64,000 nucleotides of DNA. Source: Escherichia phage ime. Every line of letters starts with the position of its first letter. Position 1 is the first letter of the stretch. The notes beneath the pieces were generated by a model. The model searched no databases, was not told where the DNA came from, and saw only the letters and a program-made list of their open reading frames with translations. The stretch lies in the sequence record MN850576.1, one strand, 5' to 3'. Both the position numbers and the translations under genes were made by a program. Positions 5,604 through 61,317 of this stretch are shown piece by piece.

Positions 5604-5702
5604 GGTGCTAGGTGATGGAATCGAACCACCTATGTATTCAACGACTACCTCGTCTATTTTCAGGATTAAAAATCCTCGCCCTTGCCAAAGGGCTTACCTA
5701 GC
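5604..5702 (-). tRNA. aberrant tRNA-like element (Lys-TTT-like anticodon arm; about 25-nt insertion in variable region); possible pseudo-tRNA
   Basis: Perfect 7-bp acceptor GCTAGGT/ACCTAGC, D-arm GCCC-TTTGGCAA-GGGC, T-arm GGTGG-TTCGATT-CCATC, anticodon arm AGGA-TTTTTAA-TCCT; about 30 nt between anticodon and T arms; CC but no terminal A encoded. Confidence 0.4.
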
Positions 5703-8711: not shown

Positions 8712-9062
8712 CTAACCAGTTGTTGACATCCGAATAACTTCTTCTGGTGGCAAAACTTTGGAAAATGTGCATCTTTTACCTCTCCCTTGTGTGGATGTCT
8801 CAACCACTCCTGCACATTCTAAAGTTTTAACGCACGCTGCTGCTTTTGTTTTCTTTATCCCAACATCTGCTGCAATTTTCCTTGTGCTTGGTGTGAAGCG
8901 TGAATTTCCTCCAAGCTTATACCAGTTATGCAGGTAGCAGTATACGATCTTGTCATACAAGTCAAGAACAACAACCTCCCCAGTTGTGTCATTCAAAACT
9001 TTTGACATAGATAGTATTTCAAGGGGGACTTTAAGATATAGCAGCTTATCCCCATCTTTCAT
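8712..9062 (-). CDS. putative helix-turn-helix DNA-binding protein
   Basis: 116 aa; C-terminal segment STRKIAADVGIKKTKAAACVKTLECAGVV resembles a winged-HTH recognition region; adjacent to palindrome array. Confidence 0.45.
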   Translation of the reverse strand: MKDGDKLLYLKVPLEILSMSKVLNDTTGEVVVLDLYDKIVYCYLHNWYKLGGNSRFTPSTRKIAADVGIKKTKAAACVKTLECAGVVETSTQGRGKRCTFSKVLPPEEVIRMSTTG

Positions 9063-9109: not shown

Positions 9110-9664
9110 TTACTCCCTGCTGTCAATATCAAAACTCATTGCAATACGGTATGCCTCTTCTAATGGTAAGAGTCTCCCCCACACATCCCAACCGACATCA
9201 AGCTGCCTGCCAAACAACTGTTGTGTGGTTCCGTGAGCATGACCGAACAGTTGGACTGATCCGTGAGGCTTTCTGTTCCACTTTGCAAACTGGTAATGGC
9301 TCATACAGATCAAATTCTTGTTGTGGCGAAGCTCGTAATAATCTACAACCTCATGACCGAACTCTTTCATAATTCTGACAGTCGTCCTTGTGTCATGGTT
9401 GCCACGAACAAGAATAATATGTCCGTTCAACATATTTAGAATATCTGGAAGCAAGTTGTTGATATTCTTATCATTAGTGCACGCAATATCTCCCAAGTGG
9501 AACACAGTGTCTGCAGGTGACACAACAGAGTTCCACTCGGCGATGATTCCCGCATTCATACTGTCAAGATTGTGATCATACTGAGATCTGTGTTTTTGAC
9601 ATGAATCAAACTCCATGACCCGCTGGTGGAGAAAGTGTGTGTCGCTTGTTACAAAGTATTTCAT
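9110..9664 (-). CDS. calcineurin-like metallophosphoesterase
   Basis: Starts MKYFVTSDTHF; motifs GDIACTNDKN and GNHD typical of metallophosphoesterases; ORF track start trimmed to Met at 9662-9664 with GAGGA SD; directly follows kinase stop. Confidence 0.7.
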   Translation of the reverse strand: MKYFVTSDTHFLHQRVMEFDSCQKHRSQYDHNLDSMNAGIIAEWNSVVSPADTVFHLGDIACTNDKNINNLLPDILNMLNGHIILVRGNHDTRTTVRIMKEFGHEVVDYYELRHNKNLICMSHYQFAKWNRKPHGSVQLFGHAHGTTQQLFGRQLDVGWDVWGRLLPLEEAYRIAMSFDIDSRE

Positions 9665-47417: not shown

Positions 47418-47546
47418 CACACAATTAGCTGCCAGGCTAAAGTGCTGGAAGCGCACCTATAACACATCTTTCAACTAAATTTCCTACCACCACAATCACT
47501 TACCTCCCACACATGACTGTTTGCTTGTTTAGTGAGCAGTCATGCC

Positions 47547-47574
47547 TTGACATTCTTGCCTATCCTGATAAAAT
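47547..47574 (+). promoter_or_regulatory. sigma70-like promoter (TTGACA-N16-TAAAAT) facing an ORF-free region
   Basis: -35 47547-47552, -10 47569-47574; no ORF of 60 aa or more downstream on plus strand for over 2 kb. Confidence 0.45.
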
Positions 47575-47579
47575 TAAGT

Positions 47580-47860
47580 TCTTCTCTTTTCTTTTACCGA
47601 GTAATTCGGGTTTTCTGTTCTCTTCGGTTTGAAGGGGTATGGAGATACACCTGAGTGAACAGGGTGAACAACCGAACCATTGGCTATGGCATTAGCATGG
47701 CGAAGCGGACGGGTGACGAAAGAGGGGCCGGAGGACACCAGTCACTGCCATATGGTATATGGGTGATAACCTGAAGAGTCTGAATAAGTGTTTAAGTACC
47801 AGTCAGAGGAAAAGGTGAATGGTAGCCGAAGGGGGAGGGGGGTTTCTTGTATCTTTAATT
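47580..47860 (+). ncRNA. candidate non-coding transcript (unclassified)
   Basis: Promoter-proximal ORF-free stretch with locally elevated GC and G-rich tract (GAAGGGGGAGGGGGG) followed by TTTCTTGTATCTTT. Confidence 0.2.
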
Positions 47861-48912
47861 TGTATATTATGTATACACTTGTAAACCAATCTCATCTGAA
47901 TCTGTTTACCACACAAAGCGGATAGAGACAAATATCACCTATTAAACTTGAATTATTTATAGAAAATACCACAACACCACTTAAGTCTTTGATTTTACAC
48001 ACAAATCCTACAGATATTCAACCTCCATATTTAACATACTTGTAACATATTCCATACTCTACCTGTCTGATCAATCTACCCAACCACATCCTTCATATTT
48101 TCCCTGTCTGTACCACCCCTGCCCCGCCGGGAGTCCCGTCATATCTGGCTTTCCAGTAAATAGCACACCCACAAATATCATTGCCTGAAGAGGGTTTCAT
48201 CCCATAATACATGCCTTACCTGAAGAGCGCTTCATACACCACGTAAATTTTTTAATTGACCTGCAATTTTCCCGTCATGACCCCCCCCCTGCCCCGCCGG
48301 AGAGGTTGGCTTTTCCCACACAGACCTGAAGAGTCAGCCAGAAATATCTGAACAGGTCCAGTTCTGCCTTGTCATGAGCCGTAGCGACTGGAGTGCTGCC
48401 AGGCGGACGGAATGGGAATACTTCTCATTCTTATAATAATTCTCAAATATCGAGGCAGTGAGGCAAATTAATAGGTGAGGCCGTTCACACAGTGGCACAA
48501 CATTTGCAATCTATTTTGTGAGGGTGAATGAGAATACCTATCATTGTGAGAACCTTTATCATTACGGGCAATTTAACATAATACCCATTATGCGCACCAC
48601 TGGCGATACATACAGGGATTGATACCATGAGTTACAGTTTACGCATATAACAATCATATTTCTTACTATTTGTGTGGGATATAGTTAGCAACCAATAGAT
48701 TAGATATTGACCTACAGACTTCCAACCGTCTAGACGTCTAAACGCCCACACACCAAGGGTTATACATACATTACTGAATGTAAACAGGGCCGCAAAAATG
48801 CTACCATACCAGTTTGTAAATTTTTCATGCAGCACTTGACAAAGAGGAGAAAAACTTGTCTGACATAATGTGACCTAACTGACACAACATGACACTTTTA
48901 CACACCTATTAG

Positions 48913-48984
48913 TTTACACACTGGATTGTTTACATTCCTGATTGTTCACATGCTAACCATTTACATGATTGACTGTTTACACAC
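48913..48984. repeat. iteron-like direct repeats (five TTTACA/TTCACA copies, loosely DnaA-box-like)
   Basis: GTTTACACA 48913-48921, TGTTTACAT 48927-48935, TTGTTCACA 48942-48950, ATTTACAT 48959-48966, TGTTTACACA 48975-48984; further copies near 49395-49455. Confidence 0.55.
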
Positions 48985-48993
48985 CGATAATCA

Positions 48994-49251
48994 GCCATGC
49001 CATTCGTTTGCATGACAATAATTATACATGACAATAATCGCACTGATTATAATTAGCATGACATAATATAAAAGCAGGGCAACTATTAGCAGATCTATAG
49101 TTGCCTTGCTTGTTATGTCATGATTAACTAAATACAAGGCAACTATGATCTGATTAATAGTTTGCAGACAAACTATCACGGGGGTGATGGTTACTGCTTT
49201 TATATTATGTCGCGACTCCGTCGCGCCATGCCATTCGTTTGCATAGTTGCC
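48994..49251. repeat. composite repeat: 20-bp direct repeat, 18-20 bp inverted repeat, four GGCAACTAT/ATAGTTGCC copies
   Basis: GCCATGCCATTCGTTTGCAT at 48994-49013 and 49225-49244; ATGACATAATATAAAAGCAG 49058-49077 vs its reverse complement 49194-49211; GGCAACTAT at 49078, 49138 and ATAGTTGCC at 49097, 49243. Confidence 0.7.
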
Positions 49252-49861
49252 TTATTGTTACAGATAAAATAATTGTATTGTTAATTATTTCTTATCTTTC
49301 TATTAGTCATCTAATGATTTCAGTTAATATAGTAACGTACAGTAAACATTAGACGACTAAAGATTTCTCTGCTTATGGTAACCTAACGTGACAATTCCAG
49401 ACTGTTTACGAAAAATGTTGACACCTGGGCCGATTTATGTTATGCAGTTTACACGAATAATTATTTTATGCAGGTATTGACTATTCCGTTATTCTATGGT
49501 TGGAATAAATGCTTAGCAGGCTATAGAATGGCGAGCGTACGTAAATTCTGAGATCTGGCGGCTATAGTTATACTCGATTTTTCACGTAGAAAACGCTTTT
49601 GTAGCTATGTAAGTGTATGACTTATAAAGATTTTTAGTTGTTGACAAGATATTGGAGATGTGCATCAGATTAAATTTTGTGCAATAGCTACATTACGTGC
49701 ACTTTTGGAAGAAAAAACGTGTAAAAATGGCCCTGCTACCACACAATGAAAGATTATGCAATAGTTATTTTATATGTATATTTGTACAGTGTGTGGGATT
49801 AATGGCTAGTCAATTATTCCACTTGCCAGGTAGGGCCGTTTATGGTAGGAGAAGAGCAGAC

Positions 49862-49886
49862 AAAAAGAAAGGGGCCTTTAAGCCCC
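49862..49886 (-). terminator. rho-independent terminator (minus strand)
   Basis: On minus strand GGGGC...GCCCC hairpin followed by TTTCTTTTTG; downstream of gene 49907-50326. Confidence 0.55.
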
Positions 49887-49906
49887 TTGATAATTCAGTT
49901 AAGAAA

Positions 49907-50326
49907 TTATAATGATTCGTATATTTCAAAAATCCGATTTGCCAGGTCGTTACGGTAGCGGAATTTTTCATCACGCTTGATCATTAAATCCTTATAGCCG
50001 TACTCTTTAAGCACTTCATTAACTTTATGGCGGCATACCTGCATATTATCTTGAGCGTCACCAATAAACTTGTTGCTGTGGTGCATTGCTTTAATTTCTT
50101 CTTCCAGGACCAGGGCAACTACCCGGACCGGATCAAGCTGGTAGGCGGTAACATCCATGCGGCATTGTAGACGGCTTTTAACGTCTGCCACCGGATATAC
50201 TGCAACCTCTTCCCCGTCAACATTAACAATAACTAGTTTACCATCGATTTCGAATCCTTTCGCCGCCGGACCGTGACAAAAAGCGTTATCAAAGCTATAT
50301 GCCGGATTATCAGATTTAATGTTCAT
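49907..50326 (-). CDS. hypothetical protein
   Basis: 139-aa ORF; minus-strand promoter TTGACA-N17-TATATT and SD AAGAGG upstream. Confidence 0.5.
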   Translation of the reverse strand: MNIKSDNPAYSFDNAFCHGPAAKGFEIDGKLVIVNVDGEEVAVYPVADVKSRLQCRMDVTAYQLDPVRVVALVLEEEIKAMHHSNKFIGDAQDNMQVCRHKVNEVLKEYGYKDLMIKRDEKFRYRNDLANRIFEIYESL

Positions 50327-59629: not shown

Positions 59630-60304
59630 CGATTATTTTAAATTATTTTTATGATAGAATCCACCTGCCGCCCCCGCCAGGTTAACCACCATTTTTTCGT
59701 ACTCTTCTTTATGTTCCCGCGCTTCTGTATCATTAATCACTACATTTCCCAGGTGAGTAGCATTACCTTTCATTTTTGTACCTCCTCTTCAATTGTTTAC
59801 CCTACAGCATGGGCCTACCAGGTTTGCAAGATTTCACCCTCTCCCACCTGGTCAGTTAGGTCCTGCCAGGCTGGCCCCGCCAGGTTGCAACGGTTAGCGC
59901 ATCAGGTTAGAAAAATTTTTTGAAAAGGTGTTGACAGCGGCCCCGCCAGGGGGCACAATATACCTATCGAAAGGACGGCAGGCACCGGTGACGGTGGAGA
60001 CAACCACCGGGGATGGGCGCTGCATAAAATGAGAACGGTTATCATTATCATTTAAAAATTTATGCAAAAAATCCTTGCCTTCTTTGTCCTGTGTGATACT
60101 ATAATAACAAGCCGGGGCAACAGGGGCCGGGAGACAATCACCGGGCCTGCCCGTTATTCTGCAAACGAGAATGATTATCATTCAAAATTCTAAATGAGAA
60201 CTCCTCGCATTTAATAAATTTAATTAGCATGCTAATTACCCTCCGTAACAATTTCCTATAAAACAGTATCCCATAAAATATTCCCATATAGAAATTTTAA
60301 AAAT

Positions 60305-60486
60305 CCATTTCTGAAAACGAAAAATCGATTTCGTCCCCAAAAATTTCAGGTCGAGAGCTGGAACGATTTCCAGAAAATCCGATTCAGAAAACGAAAAACA
60401 GATCGAGTACTTGGAAATTTATCGAGAAAAATTTTCAGAAAATTCAATCTTTGAAACGAAAAACAGATCGAGTACTTGGAAAGCTG
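60305..60486. repeat. tandem direct repeats, about 66-bp period, 2.5 copies
   Basis: AAACGAAAAACAGATCGAGTACTTGGAAA at 60388-60417 and 60454-60483 nearly identical; degenerate copy at 60314-60345; TTCAGAAAA sub-motif recurs. Confidence 0.75.
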
Positions 60487-60787
60487 TACCGCAACTTCAA
60501 GATAGTGGCTGGATTATTGCCATAAAAGGCCAAGGGCGAGTGGGAAAGTTCTGGTAGAAGGATGTGAGCATGTGTGGGAAAATCTATAATGGTGGCCTGG
60601 AATATGGTGCAAACGATAGGATGAGTTATTCAGCTTGTCGCGCCTACTCTGAAAAATCCATTTTAGTTTTCGATCCATTTTCTGATTTTCTAAGAATTTT
60701 AAAATATCCAGCCCGGTGAAATATCAAAAGGAGGAAATCCATTTTAGAAATCCCCCTTATACTTGATATGCCAGGAATTTTCAAGTA

Positions 60788-61117
60788 TCAGTTGTCTTTG
60801 TTTTTAGGTTTGTACATGCGCAGAGGTATGGTCTTTGTAACATTCCATTTCCTCAACCCTTCCCAGCTCCAGTTGTGGGCGTGGTATCCGGTTATGCATG
60901 CACTACTGGAGTGATCGTAAGCATAAGAGAACGCTAAGCGCACCAGGTGGGGCCAGTCCTTCCATGGTTGTGGACCGTAAGCTTTTCTCCAACACCGACA
61001 CAAACTAAATGTCTCAAGGATAGGAAGGATAACAAACCCATACACTGTCACCAAAATAGTCAGTGCAATGATTGTCAGGAACACATACCCTGCAGTTGAA
61101 ATGATGATCTCTGTCAT
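60788..61117 (-). CDS. membrane protein
   Basis: N-terminal IIISTAGYVFLTIIALTILVTVYGFVILPI hydrophobic segment. Confidence 0.4.
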   Translation of the reverse strand: MTEIIISTAGYVFLTIIALTILVTVYGFVILPILETFSLCRCWRKAYGPQPWKDWPHLVRLAFSYAYDHSSSACITGYHAHNWSWEGLRKWNVTKTIPLRMYKPKNKDN

Positions 61118-61317
61118 TTGTCGTCCCCTTTCTTACGGATATAGATGTGAGAACCTGCCTGTATATAAATTTCTCGACCATCTTCTGCGAAGATGTGGAA
61201 TACACGGTCACCTTCGTACTCAATACGAGATATCTTCATAATGGTCTTTCCACCTGGGATACGGATCTCGTCCCCCACAGCGATGTTCCATGCAGATTTA
61301 AGCTTAAACATCTGCAC
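61114..61317 (-). CDS. hypothetical protein
   Basis: 67-aa coupled ORF. Confidence 0.4.
   Translation of the reverse strand: MQMFKLKSAWNIAVGDEIRIPGGKTIMKISRIEYEGDRVFHIFAEDGREIYIQAGSHIYIRKKGDDK

Follow-up and report, generated by a model that had tools for sequence, protein, structure and literature searches.

The DNA analysed here, hereafter the window, is a stretch of 64,000 nt from Escherichia phage ime (record MN850576.1). Its genes run rightward between 10 and 47.4 kb and leftward between 49.9 and 64 kb, as judged from the list of open reading frames (ORFs), the switch in GC skew and the annotation of relatives. The same sources delimit a first non-coding region (NCR1, 47418–49906), an ORF-poor zone of 2.5 kb in which rightward and leftward genes converge. 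The second (NCR2, 59773–60787) is a 1.0-kb gap within the leftward-transcribed block of small early genes. Both regions have counterparts, with 90–98% identity, in about 120 records of rV5-like coliphages (genus Vequintavirus).

NCR1 contains the counterpart of the genome ends of vequintaviruses. In the HdK5 record, bases 1–459 are identical to the last 459 bases, which makes them a direct terminal repeat, and they map to 48402–48860 in the window (459 bp). “Short terminal redundancies of 458 bp” have been reported for EdH4 and HdK5 (Korf et al. 2019, PMC6563267). Position 48402 is the equivalent of the physical left end of the packaged DNA, and the same points are the start or the end of other records.

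NCR2 contains several elements in addition to the boxes described below. A predicted sigma-70 promoter, P1 (59931–59959, plus strand, TTGACA-17-CACAAT), is directed away from the flanking genes. A second predicted promoter, P2 (60075–60105, plus strand, TTGCCT ... TATAAT), was recognised by sequence comparison and was not among the promoters returned by the promoter scan. A similar -35/-10 pair was seen by eye at the equivalent place in eight other genera, with a spacer of 16–17 nt versus 19 nt here. Between P2 and the boxes, alignment across loci revealed a conserved block on the plus strand (60114–60163, GGAGACAAWCACC ... TGCCCG-ATTCTGCAAA), for which RNAalifold gave no consensus structure. 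On the 3' side of the box array, repeat analysis detected three 57-nt direct repeats (60287–60482).

Sequence and arrangement of the boxes

The initial annotation had described a bipartite 17-bp motif shared by the two non-coding regions. All five sequences that it quoted are present, but the spacer of four nucleotides (N4) in its formula finds no match; the spacer is N3, and the motif reads TGAGAAY-N3-TATCATT (7+3+7 = 17). The first three copies had been placed correctly, whereas the fourth and fifth lie one base further to the right, at 60166–60182 and 60195–60211. Its statement that the motif is confined to non-coding DNA was borne out in the complete 137.7-kb genome of the relative “nomo”, where copies with at most one mismatch occur in the two NCRs only. 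The motif is also more frequent than expected: four matches with at most one mismatch were counted, against 0.16 +/- 0.42 in 100 dinucleotide shuffles, none of which reached four. The flanks of the copies are unrelated to one another.

Reading of both strands revealed that the 17-mer is part of a 19–21 bp palindrome, aAATGA(G/T)AAT-N-ATT(C/A)TCATTt. The two half-sites are interchangeable, each being TGAGAAT or TGATAAT. From 28 boxes in nine genera the consensus AAATGAGAATcATTCTCATTT was derived, with an information content of 24 bits. At position 4 of the half-site, over the 28 boxes, G accounts for 70% and T for 28%.

A matrix derived exclusively from boxes found in other genera was used to scan the window. 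The five best sites were at 60163, 60027, 48410, 60192 and 48526, with scores from 26.5 to 16.7; the best score in shuffled sequence was on average 10.4. The boxes were also aligned to reference forms of the operator recognised by Fur, the ferric uptake regulator, namely the 19-bp form GATAATGATAATCATTATC, the 9-1-9 form AATGATAATNATTATCATT and the 7-1-7 form TGATAATnATTATCA. The first of these is the classical E. coli Fur box, and the Vibrio box has been published as AATGATAATAATTATCATT, of 9-1-9 geometry (PMC7536154).

Four boxes were found in NCR1. The Fur-type box NCR1-a (AATGGGAATACTTCTCATT, 48411–48429) has a matrix score of 21.0 and agrees with the 9-1-9 consensus at 14 of 18 positions. 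It begins at nucleotide 10 of the virion DNA, 9 bp from the end, and in eight vequintaviruses its variation is restricted to the central bases. Offset from it by 18 bp is a weak overlapping box (48429–48447), the core of which, TTATAATAATTCTCA, agrees with the half-site at 11 of 12 positions and with the 7-1-7 consensus at 12 of 14. These two copies had been overlooked in the initial annotation. NCR1-b (AATGAGAATACCTATCATT, 48527–48545), also of Fur type, scores 16.7, agrees with the 9-1-9 consensus at 15 of 18 positions and includes the first of the copies noticed previously. The second of those is NCR1-c (TGTGAGAACCTTTATCATT, 48545–48563), which is weaker (score 8.4) and is offset from NCR1-b by 18 bp, the length of three hexamers; among relatives the spacer varies but the half-sites do not. 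NCR1 is therefore an arrangement of two box pairs, with 18 bp within each pair. All of its boxes are inside the terminal repeat, since the HdK5 repeat maps to 48402–48860.

The boxes of NCR2 lie 11.6–11.8 kb from the left end, that is at 8.4% of the 139.3-kb genome. NCR2-a (AATGAGAACGGTTATCATT, 60028–60052) is a Fur-type box with a score of 24.2, 15 of 18 matches to the 9-1-9 consensus and an overlapping ATCATT extension. Its minus strand (60031–60049) reads GATAATGATAACCGTTCTC and agrees with the classical E. coli Fur box at 16 of 19 positions, the best such match in the window. NCR2-b (AACGAGAATGATTATCATT, 60164–60182), again of Fur type, is the best box overall (score 26.5) and is kept across genera. 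It agrees with the 9-1-9 consensus at 16 of 18 positions and with the E. coli consensus at 15 of 19 (60167, minus strand). NCR2-c (AATGAGAACTCCTCGCATT, 60193–60211, score 19.9) is a degenerate box 29 bp from NCR2-b. Together, the two clusters bracket small leftward genes with sigma-70-type promoters.

Among the eight vequintaviruses, substitutions within boxes fell in the central spacer only. Footprinting within the genus is uninformative for NCR1, where a whole block of 250 bp is conserved and the boxes are not singled out.

Resemblance to Fur operators

Fur binds DNA as a metal-loaded dimer (Fe2+-Fur), with a loose, AT-rich specificity. The best matches in the window to published Fur sequences were found at 60031 (16/19), at 60164 (16/18), and at 48527 and 60028 (15/18 each). 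At the threshold used, the published consensus sequences had 18 matches in the window versus 2–3 in shuffled sequence. The 7-1-7 geometry was present as the core TGA(G/T)AAT-N-ATT(C/A)TCA in the 28 boxes, and the tandem pair has a period of 18 bp, the length of three hexamers of the alternative array form (NAT(A/T)AT).

For cross-validation, a matrix made from phage boxes only was scanned over the segment 595–640 kb (45 kb) of the E. coli K-12 chromosome. The four best matches, with scores from 14.1 to 11.5, were located in fepB-entC (two matches), fepA-fes and fepD-entS, the Fur-controlled divergent promoter regions of this segment. The next site outside those ent/fep regions scored 4.7.

The bacterial context of the sequence was also inspected. 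The exact 18-mer AATGAGAATNATTCTCATT, taken from the phage consensus, is present in over 120 bacterial genomes, which belong to many phyla. Among 107 ORFs whose start lies no more than 160 bp from it, Pfam analysis returned TonB-receptor Plug domains (11), Fe3+-type solute-binding proteins (9), ZnuA/SitA (6), FUR (6), ECF sigma factors (6), FTR1 (3), PepSY_TM (2) and Peripla_BP_2 (2). The G form of the half-site (TGAGAAT) is thus what stands upstream of bacterial iron genes in the surroundings of this 18-mer. Because the published consensus, the E. coli scan and the bacterial context agree, the sequence, G form included, is by all these comparisons a working Fur-family operator in bacteria.

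The phage boxes resemble Fur boxes in length, in dyad symmetry and in the spacing of the half-sites, with agreement at up to 16 of 18–19 positions. They differ in the preference for G at position 4, where the classical E. coli consensus has T, and in their setting: the phage copies stand in arrays with spacings of 18, 29 or 35 bp, in large ORF-free regions and in the terminal repeat of a virulent phage. We put at roughly 70% the probability of a Fur box, the kind of operator to which the host's ferric uptake regulator binds. When the motif was first noticed, it was proposed to be bound by some factor of the phage or of the host. The dyad symmetry and the Fur-box match support a predicted protein-binding site, and the present evidence goes further in that it points to one specific host factor.

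Fur boxes are textbook promoter operators. In Fur-repressed promoters, the median position of the site is -20, overlapping the -35/-10 region (PMC10219339). None of the phage boxes overlaps the -35/-10 region of a predicted promoter: they are located at about +47 to +90 from P2, at +64 from P1, or at about -90 from P2, and the NCR1 boxes face no gene. As such overlap is absent at the promoters of phage genes, the boxes are probably not ordinary gene operators.

Boxes in other phages and in viral contigs

Distant blastn matches to other genera, with 71–88% identity, cover approximately 60066–60223, the segment with boxes b and c of NCR2. Among the genera matched were Mydovirus, Certrevirus, Seunavirus and Phapecoctavirus (different subfamily), and further matches were to unclassified Serratia, Enterobacter and “Acinetobacter” phages. 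Eight loci with a homologous non-coding region were fetched. All eight contain at least one box and seven contain two to four; the spacing of the first two or three boxes is exactly 29 bp in seven of the eight other-genera loci. By eye, every locus has the same order of elements: a rightward sigma-70-like promoter, the GGAGACAAWCACC block, the boxes and direct-repeat arrays. In phiTE and phAPEC8, the arrays behind the boxes consist of other repeats. The Certrevirus phiTE has in addition a second cluster of at least eight boxes, about 10.4 kb away.

At least 120 IMG/VR contigs contain an exact 16-mer of the box; 85 of 120 resemble neither the rV5-like nor the T5 family. In viral contigs, 81–83% of the copies lie outside ORFs of at least 100 aa, and the median ORF-free gap around the boxes is 726–887 bp, versus 320 bp in bacteria. 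Boxes stand in arrays more often in viral contigs than in bacteria (26% versus 11%), and the viral spacings peak at 29–30 and 35 bp. A search of IMG/VR for the tandem pair returned one contig only.

The 111.7-kb non-redundant genome of phage T5 was scanned with the rV5-family matrix. Its six best sites (9576, 9611, 9472, 230, 6021 and 9507) are all within the 10.1-kb terminal repeat, and those at 9472, 9507, 9576 and 9611 score 15–30. The T5 boxes correspond to copies 1–4 of “direct repeat C” (DRC) and to palindromes E, G and I, in the untranslated Repeat Region 3 of the left terminal repeat, where the injection stop signal is situated, and they share one sequence element with the rV5-like phages, TTTTTAAATGAGAATCATTATCATTTG. 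The layout of T5 consists of a perfect 7-1-7 box at 233 and a main cluster at 9.47–9.63 kb, with the pre-early genes in between.

The parallel extends to the surroundings. In both cases boxes lie in the terminal repeat and at about 8% from the left end (7.9% in T5, 8.4% for NCR2), short direct-repeat arrays follow them (the DRD repeats in T5), and they bound small early genes driven by sigma-70 promoters. There are differences as well. The T5 repeat is 10.1 kb long with a box spacing of 35 bp, whereas here a repeat of 459 bp is combined with two separate clusters. The main cluster of T5 coincides with the calculated shear point of first-step-transfer DNA (Davison preprint). A tblastn search of the rV5-like genome with the T5 first-step-transfer proteins, A1 and A2 included, returned noise only: no protein common to both phages was detected in this region, and A1 and A2, on which two-step transfer in T5 depends, have no homologue. 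To our knowledge, two-step DNA transfer is known for T5-like phages only.

Candidate ligands and possible consequences

Host Fur is the likeliest ligand of the boxes. Because Fur specificity is loose and AT-rich, a different dimeric protein could share the site. The sites of ArgR, Lrp, IclR/KdgR, FNR, IHF and Fis were set aside, as their spacing or core presumably does not fit.

Such a protein might be encoded by the phage itself: the boxes would then be operators of a dimeric early repressor, or of an end or injection protein like T5 A2, with a specificity that either resembles or mimics that of Fur. The strong and consistent preference for G at position 4 (70%) would suit this reading, as would the fixed array spacing of 29 or 35 bp without promoter overlap, and the larger ORF-free gaps and more frequent arrays of viral contigs compared with bacteria. 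A candidate is also available, since an HTH_36-like protein is encoded at 8712–9062; this single, below-threshold match (HTH_36/DUF6945) was returned by the Pfam analysis of ten ORFs flanking the NCRs, and the protein is far from the NCRs. The boxes, however, are spread over at least nine genera and T5, and the HTH protein is limited to Vequintavirus (118 records). The T5 pre-early proteins have no homologue in the rV5-like genome, and most of the viral contigs with an exact box (85/120) belong to neither phage family. Moreover, the identical G-form palindrome precedes bacterial iron-uptake genes and fur. We consider a phage-encoded ligand unlikely. A tblastn search of the phage genome with Fur proteins gave noise only, and no Fur homologue. 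The most economical choice of ligand is a conserved protein of the host, because there is no phage Fur, the HTH protein is genus-restricted, and the boxes are present in the unrelated T5 and in other viral contigs.

The boxes could instead be cis-acting sites for DNA transactions, either iterons of a lambda-like origin or terminase recognition sites near the terminal-repeat cut. NCR1-a is only 9 bp from the left genome end, and the outward promoters, box arrays and direct repeats of NCR2 resemble transcription-activated origins. Lambda-type iterons are regularly spaced palindromic initiator sites beside an AT-rich unwinding element and the initiator gene; here the spacing is regular and repeats are adjacent, and no initiator gene lies next to the boxes. 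The same boxes are found in Certrevirus, for which circular permutation and headful packaging have been reported (PMC7344957). In T5 the boxes are about 500 bp from the repeat boundary, and the origins are near the genome centre (Davison preprint). One 19-bp site would not be expected across unrelated terminases and replication proteins, and DnaA boxes (TTWTNCACA) are not enriched (10 found versus 8.2 expected). This interpretation appears quite improbable.

The palindromes might also fold into RNA or DNA hairpins and serve as terminators or processing sites, or they might be remnants derived from tRNA. The sequences are palindromic, a “tRNA-Met” is annotated over the homologous boxes in one Klebsiella phage record, and a terminator is annotated close by in phiTE. 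However, the hairpin is disfavoured because the commonest form, TGAGAAT...ATTATCA, fails to pair at position 4/12, where G would face A or U would face C, and changes that compensate between half-sites were not seen among the 28 boxes. The would-be stems are AU-rich, and the region just upstream of the boxes has no conserved structure according to RNAalifold. ARAGORN found no tRNA in the non-coding regions; the Rfam gathering search gave no match there, nor did permissive Rfam searches of the two NCRs and four relatives. The “tRNA-Met” of the Klebsiella phage was treated as a false call because neither ARAGORN nor the Rfam searches found anything there. A hairpin or tRNA origin is thus very improbable, and the element is, from its sequence, what the site of a dimeric protein looks like.

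Finally, the likeness could be due to chance or be left over from a segmental duplication that links the two NCRs, readings that could appeal to the ease with which Fur-like words arise in AT-rich non-coding DNA and to a local duplication behind the tandem pair. This explanation is already refuted by the shuffle count (four matches versus 0.16 expected) and by the independent recovery of the sites with a matrix from other genera, the more so as the flanks of the copies are unrelated and the boxes are kept in genera whose NCRs otherwise cannot be aligned, and its probability is negligible.

If host Fur is the ligand, Fe2+-Fur dimers would coat the box arrays. Within the short terminal repeat, the first cluster would offer three to four boxes, paired at a distance of 18 bp. 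The second would offer three boxes 11.6–11.8 kb inward, preceded by the outward sigma-70 promoters P1 and P2 and followed by the direct-repeat array. Replicating phage DNA might then sequester Fur, as a “Fur titration assay” in nature, and host iron uptake would be derepressed. This may serve the phage's own iron-dependent ribonucleotide reductases, which would be at work at that time and the genes of which are annotated. By our own estimate, one infecting genome would bind a few dozen Fur monomers, and because this is so few, titration would be relevant only after replication. In the laboratory version of this assay (FURTA), attributed to Stojiljkovic et al. in 1994, multicopy Fur boxes reportedly derepress the Fur regulon. 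The two situations are alike in that many high-affinity Fur boxes are carried on replicating DNA and a promoter is unnecessary; they differ in that FURTA is a laboratory artefact of plasmids, whereas titration by phage DNA would take place during infection.

Sequestration of Fur by replicating phage DNA is the first choice, though a tentative one, for the consequence of binding. It is also possible, if somewhat doubtful, that the arrays act as an iron-dependent roadblock or insulator, which would affect P1 and P2 transcripts as well as read-through where the early region begins or ends. A function connected with DNA ends or with DNA entry seems rather unlikely. One that depends strictly on fixed DNA ends is untenable for the group as a whole, because the box-bearing Certrevirus is reported to be circularly permuted.

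The T5 parallel suggests a more speculative proposal, to which we give a small chance. The box clusters would mark both boundaries of the left-terminal, first-expressed portion of about 8% in T5-like and rV5-like phages; the array and its flanking direct repeats would belong to the injection stop signal of T5, or else to a device for the protection or anchoring of DNA ends; and Fur, or another binder of the boxes, would be the missing host factor. If so, vequintaviruses would deliver or express their DNA in two stages as well, and the course of infection would be linked to cellular iron status. The palindromes of T5, which have been described since the 1980s, would in any case gain a concrete and cheaply testable candidate ligand, by which the long-open question of the T5 injection-stop region may be approached by direct experiment.

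Fur boxes on temperate phages have been described; examples are a box upstream of the sitABCD genes of lambdoid prophages and one at stx1 (PMC6969025). The likeness lies in a host Fur site on phage DNA; in those phages, however, the boxes are ordinary promoter operators of a cargo gene, whereas here the phage is virulent and no cargo gene is involved. Consensus-grade arrays away from gene starts suggest that virulent phages may exploit the metal sensor of the host beyond ordinary repression. Such arrays were found in rV5-like phages (terminal repeat and boundary of the early region), in T5 (injection-stop zone) and in many uncultivated viral contigs. Candidates for phage therapy from the rV5 and T5 groups could possibly differ in their behaviour in iron-limited hosts (gut, infected tissue).

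The Fur box as a type of element is already known, whereas promoter-less arrays of it that occupy a terminal repeat and the edge of the early region in virulent phages, and are shared by rV5-like and T5-like phages, are undescribed in the literature that we found. No paper linking Fur to these phage repeats was found, and the T5 literature consulted, the newest analysis of the region included, lists the palindromes without a function and does not mention Fur. The palindrome, its Fur identity, the terminal-repeat location and the T5 parallel were likewise absent from the initial annotation. In the rV5 genome paper, the equivalent of NCR1 is labelled “non-coding”, without any motif described (PMC3606486), and in the annotation of two relatives the tandem pair of NCR1 is entered merely as a tandem repeat with a period of 18.

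Repeated words in and between the two non-coding regions

Besides the Fur-type boxes, a second motif is common to the non-coding region in the convergent-gene zone (NCR1) and the gap in the leftward early genes (NCR2): a pair of GC-rich words, GCCCCGCCAGG and CTGCCCCGCCGG. The former is found three times in NCR2 (59667–59683, 59870–59886 and 59936–59952), one copy lying within the spacer of the predicted sigma-70 promoter P1. The latter is present twice in NCR1 (48113–48130 and 48283–48300). In other genera, GC-rich palindromes occupy the promoter spacers at the corresponding position.

NCR1 also contains three copies of the word CCTGAAGAG (48181–48235 and about 48320), two of which belong to 20-nt direct repeats separated by 35 bp. 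Directly beyond the right-hand boundary of the terminal repeat, the segment 48860–49260 is densely packed with repeats: an exact 20-nt repeat, GCCATGCCATTCGTTTGCAT, whose copies are 231 bp apart, and a perfect 18-nt inverted repeat with arms 116 nt apart. The segment also holds GCAACTAT palindromes, as well as GTTTACAC words that resemble DnaA boxes. This set of repeats may be linked to end formation or to replication.

A conserved block between promoter and boxes

The NCR2-homologous loci of eight other genera contain an RNA-like block of about 85 nt (1040–1125 in locus L009, with equivalents in L008 and L010–L015), which comes after a strong, outward-facing promoter that itself precedes the boxes. 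The block, CGCCACCCCACGGCGWAAAGGCGGGGCTAAC...GGAAGGTGGATCGCCGG, is highly conserved across these genera, and a search of Rfam with it returned no match. The window lacks it and carries a second promoter-plus-GGAGACAA unit there instead.

Additional Fur-type sites

Two weak Fur-like sites (61099–61119 and 49904–49924) were found at gene boundaries, outside the non-coding regions; their score, 11.5, is near the noise level. In phage T5, a perfect 7-1-7 match to the Fur box, TGATAATCATTATCA (L136:233–247), falls within the dmp coding sequence, 233 bp from the left end of the genome. A second cluster in phiTE comprises at least eight Fur-type boxes (JQ015307, 49209–50040), in a 1.5-kb ORF-free region that adjoins the point of convergent transcription, and about 10.4 kb separate it from the NCR2-type cluster of the same phage.

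tRNA annotations and record names

A 'tRNA-Met' annotated over two Fur-type boxes in a Klebsiella phage record (L008:1201–1273) was rejected, the sequence having no tRNA features; neither ARAGORN nor Rfam detected a tRNA in the homologous region of the window. Elsewhere, inside a cluster of seven tRNA genes, ARAGORN called a 'tRNA-???' of 99 nt (5604–5702) whose anticodon has four bases; Rfam gave it a weak tRNA score of 35.5 bits.

According to the database match tables, some 18 records named 'Campylobacter phage' are 92–100% identical to the coliphage group of the window, which looks like contamination or mislabelling within that submission series. Similarly, 'Acinetobacter phage ABPH49' falls among Enterobacter and Serratia phages.
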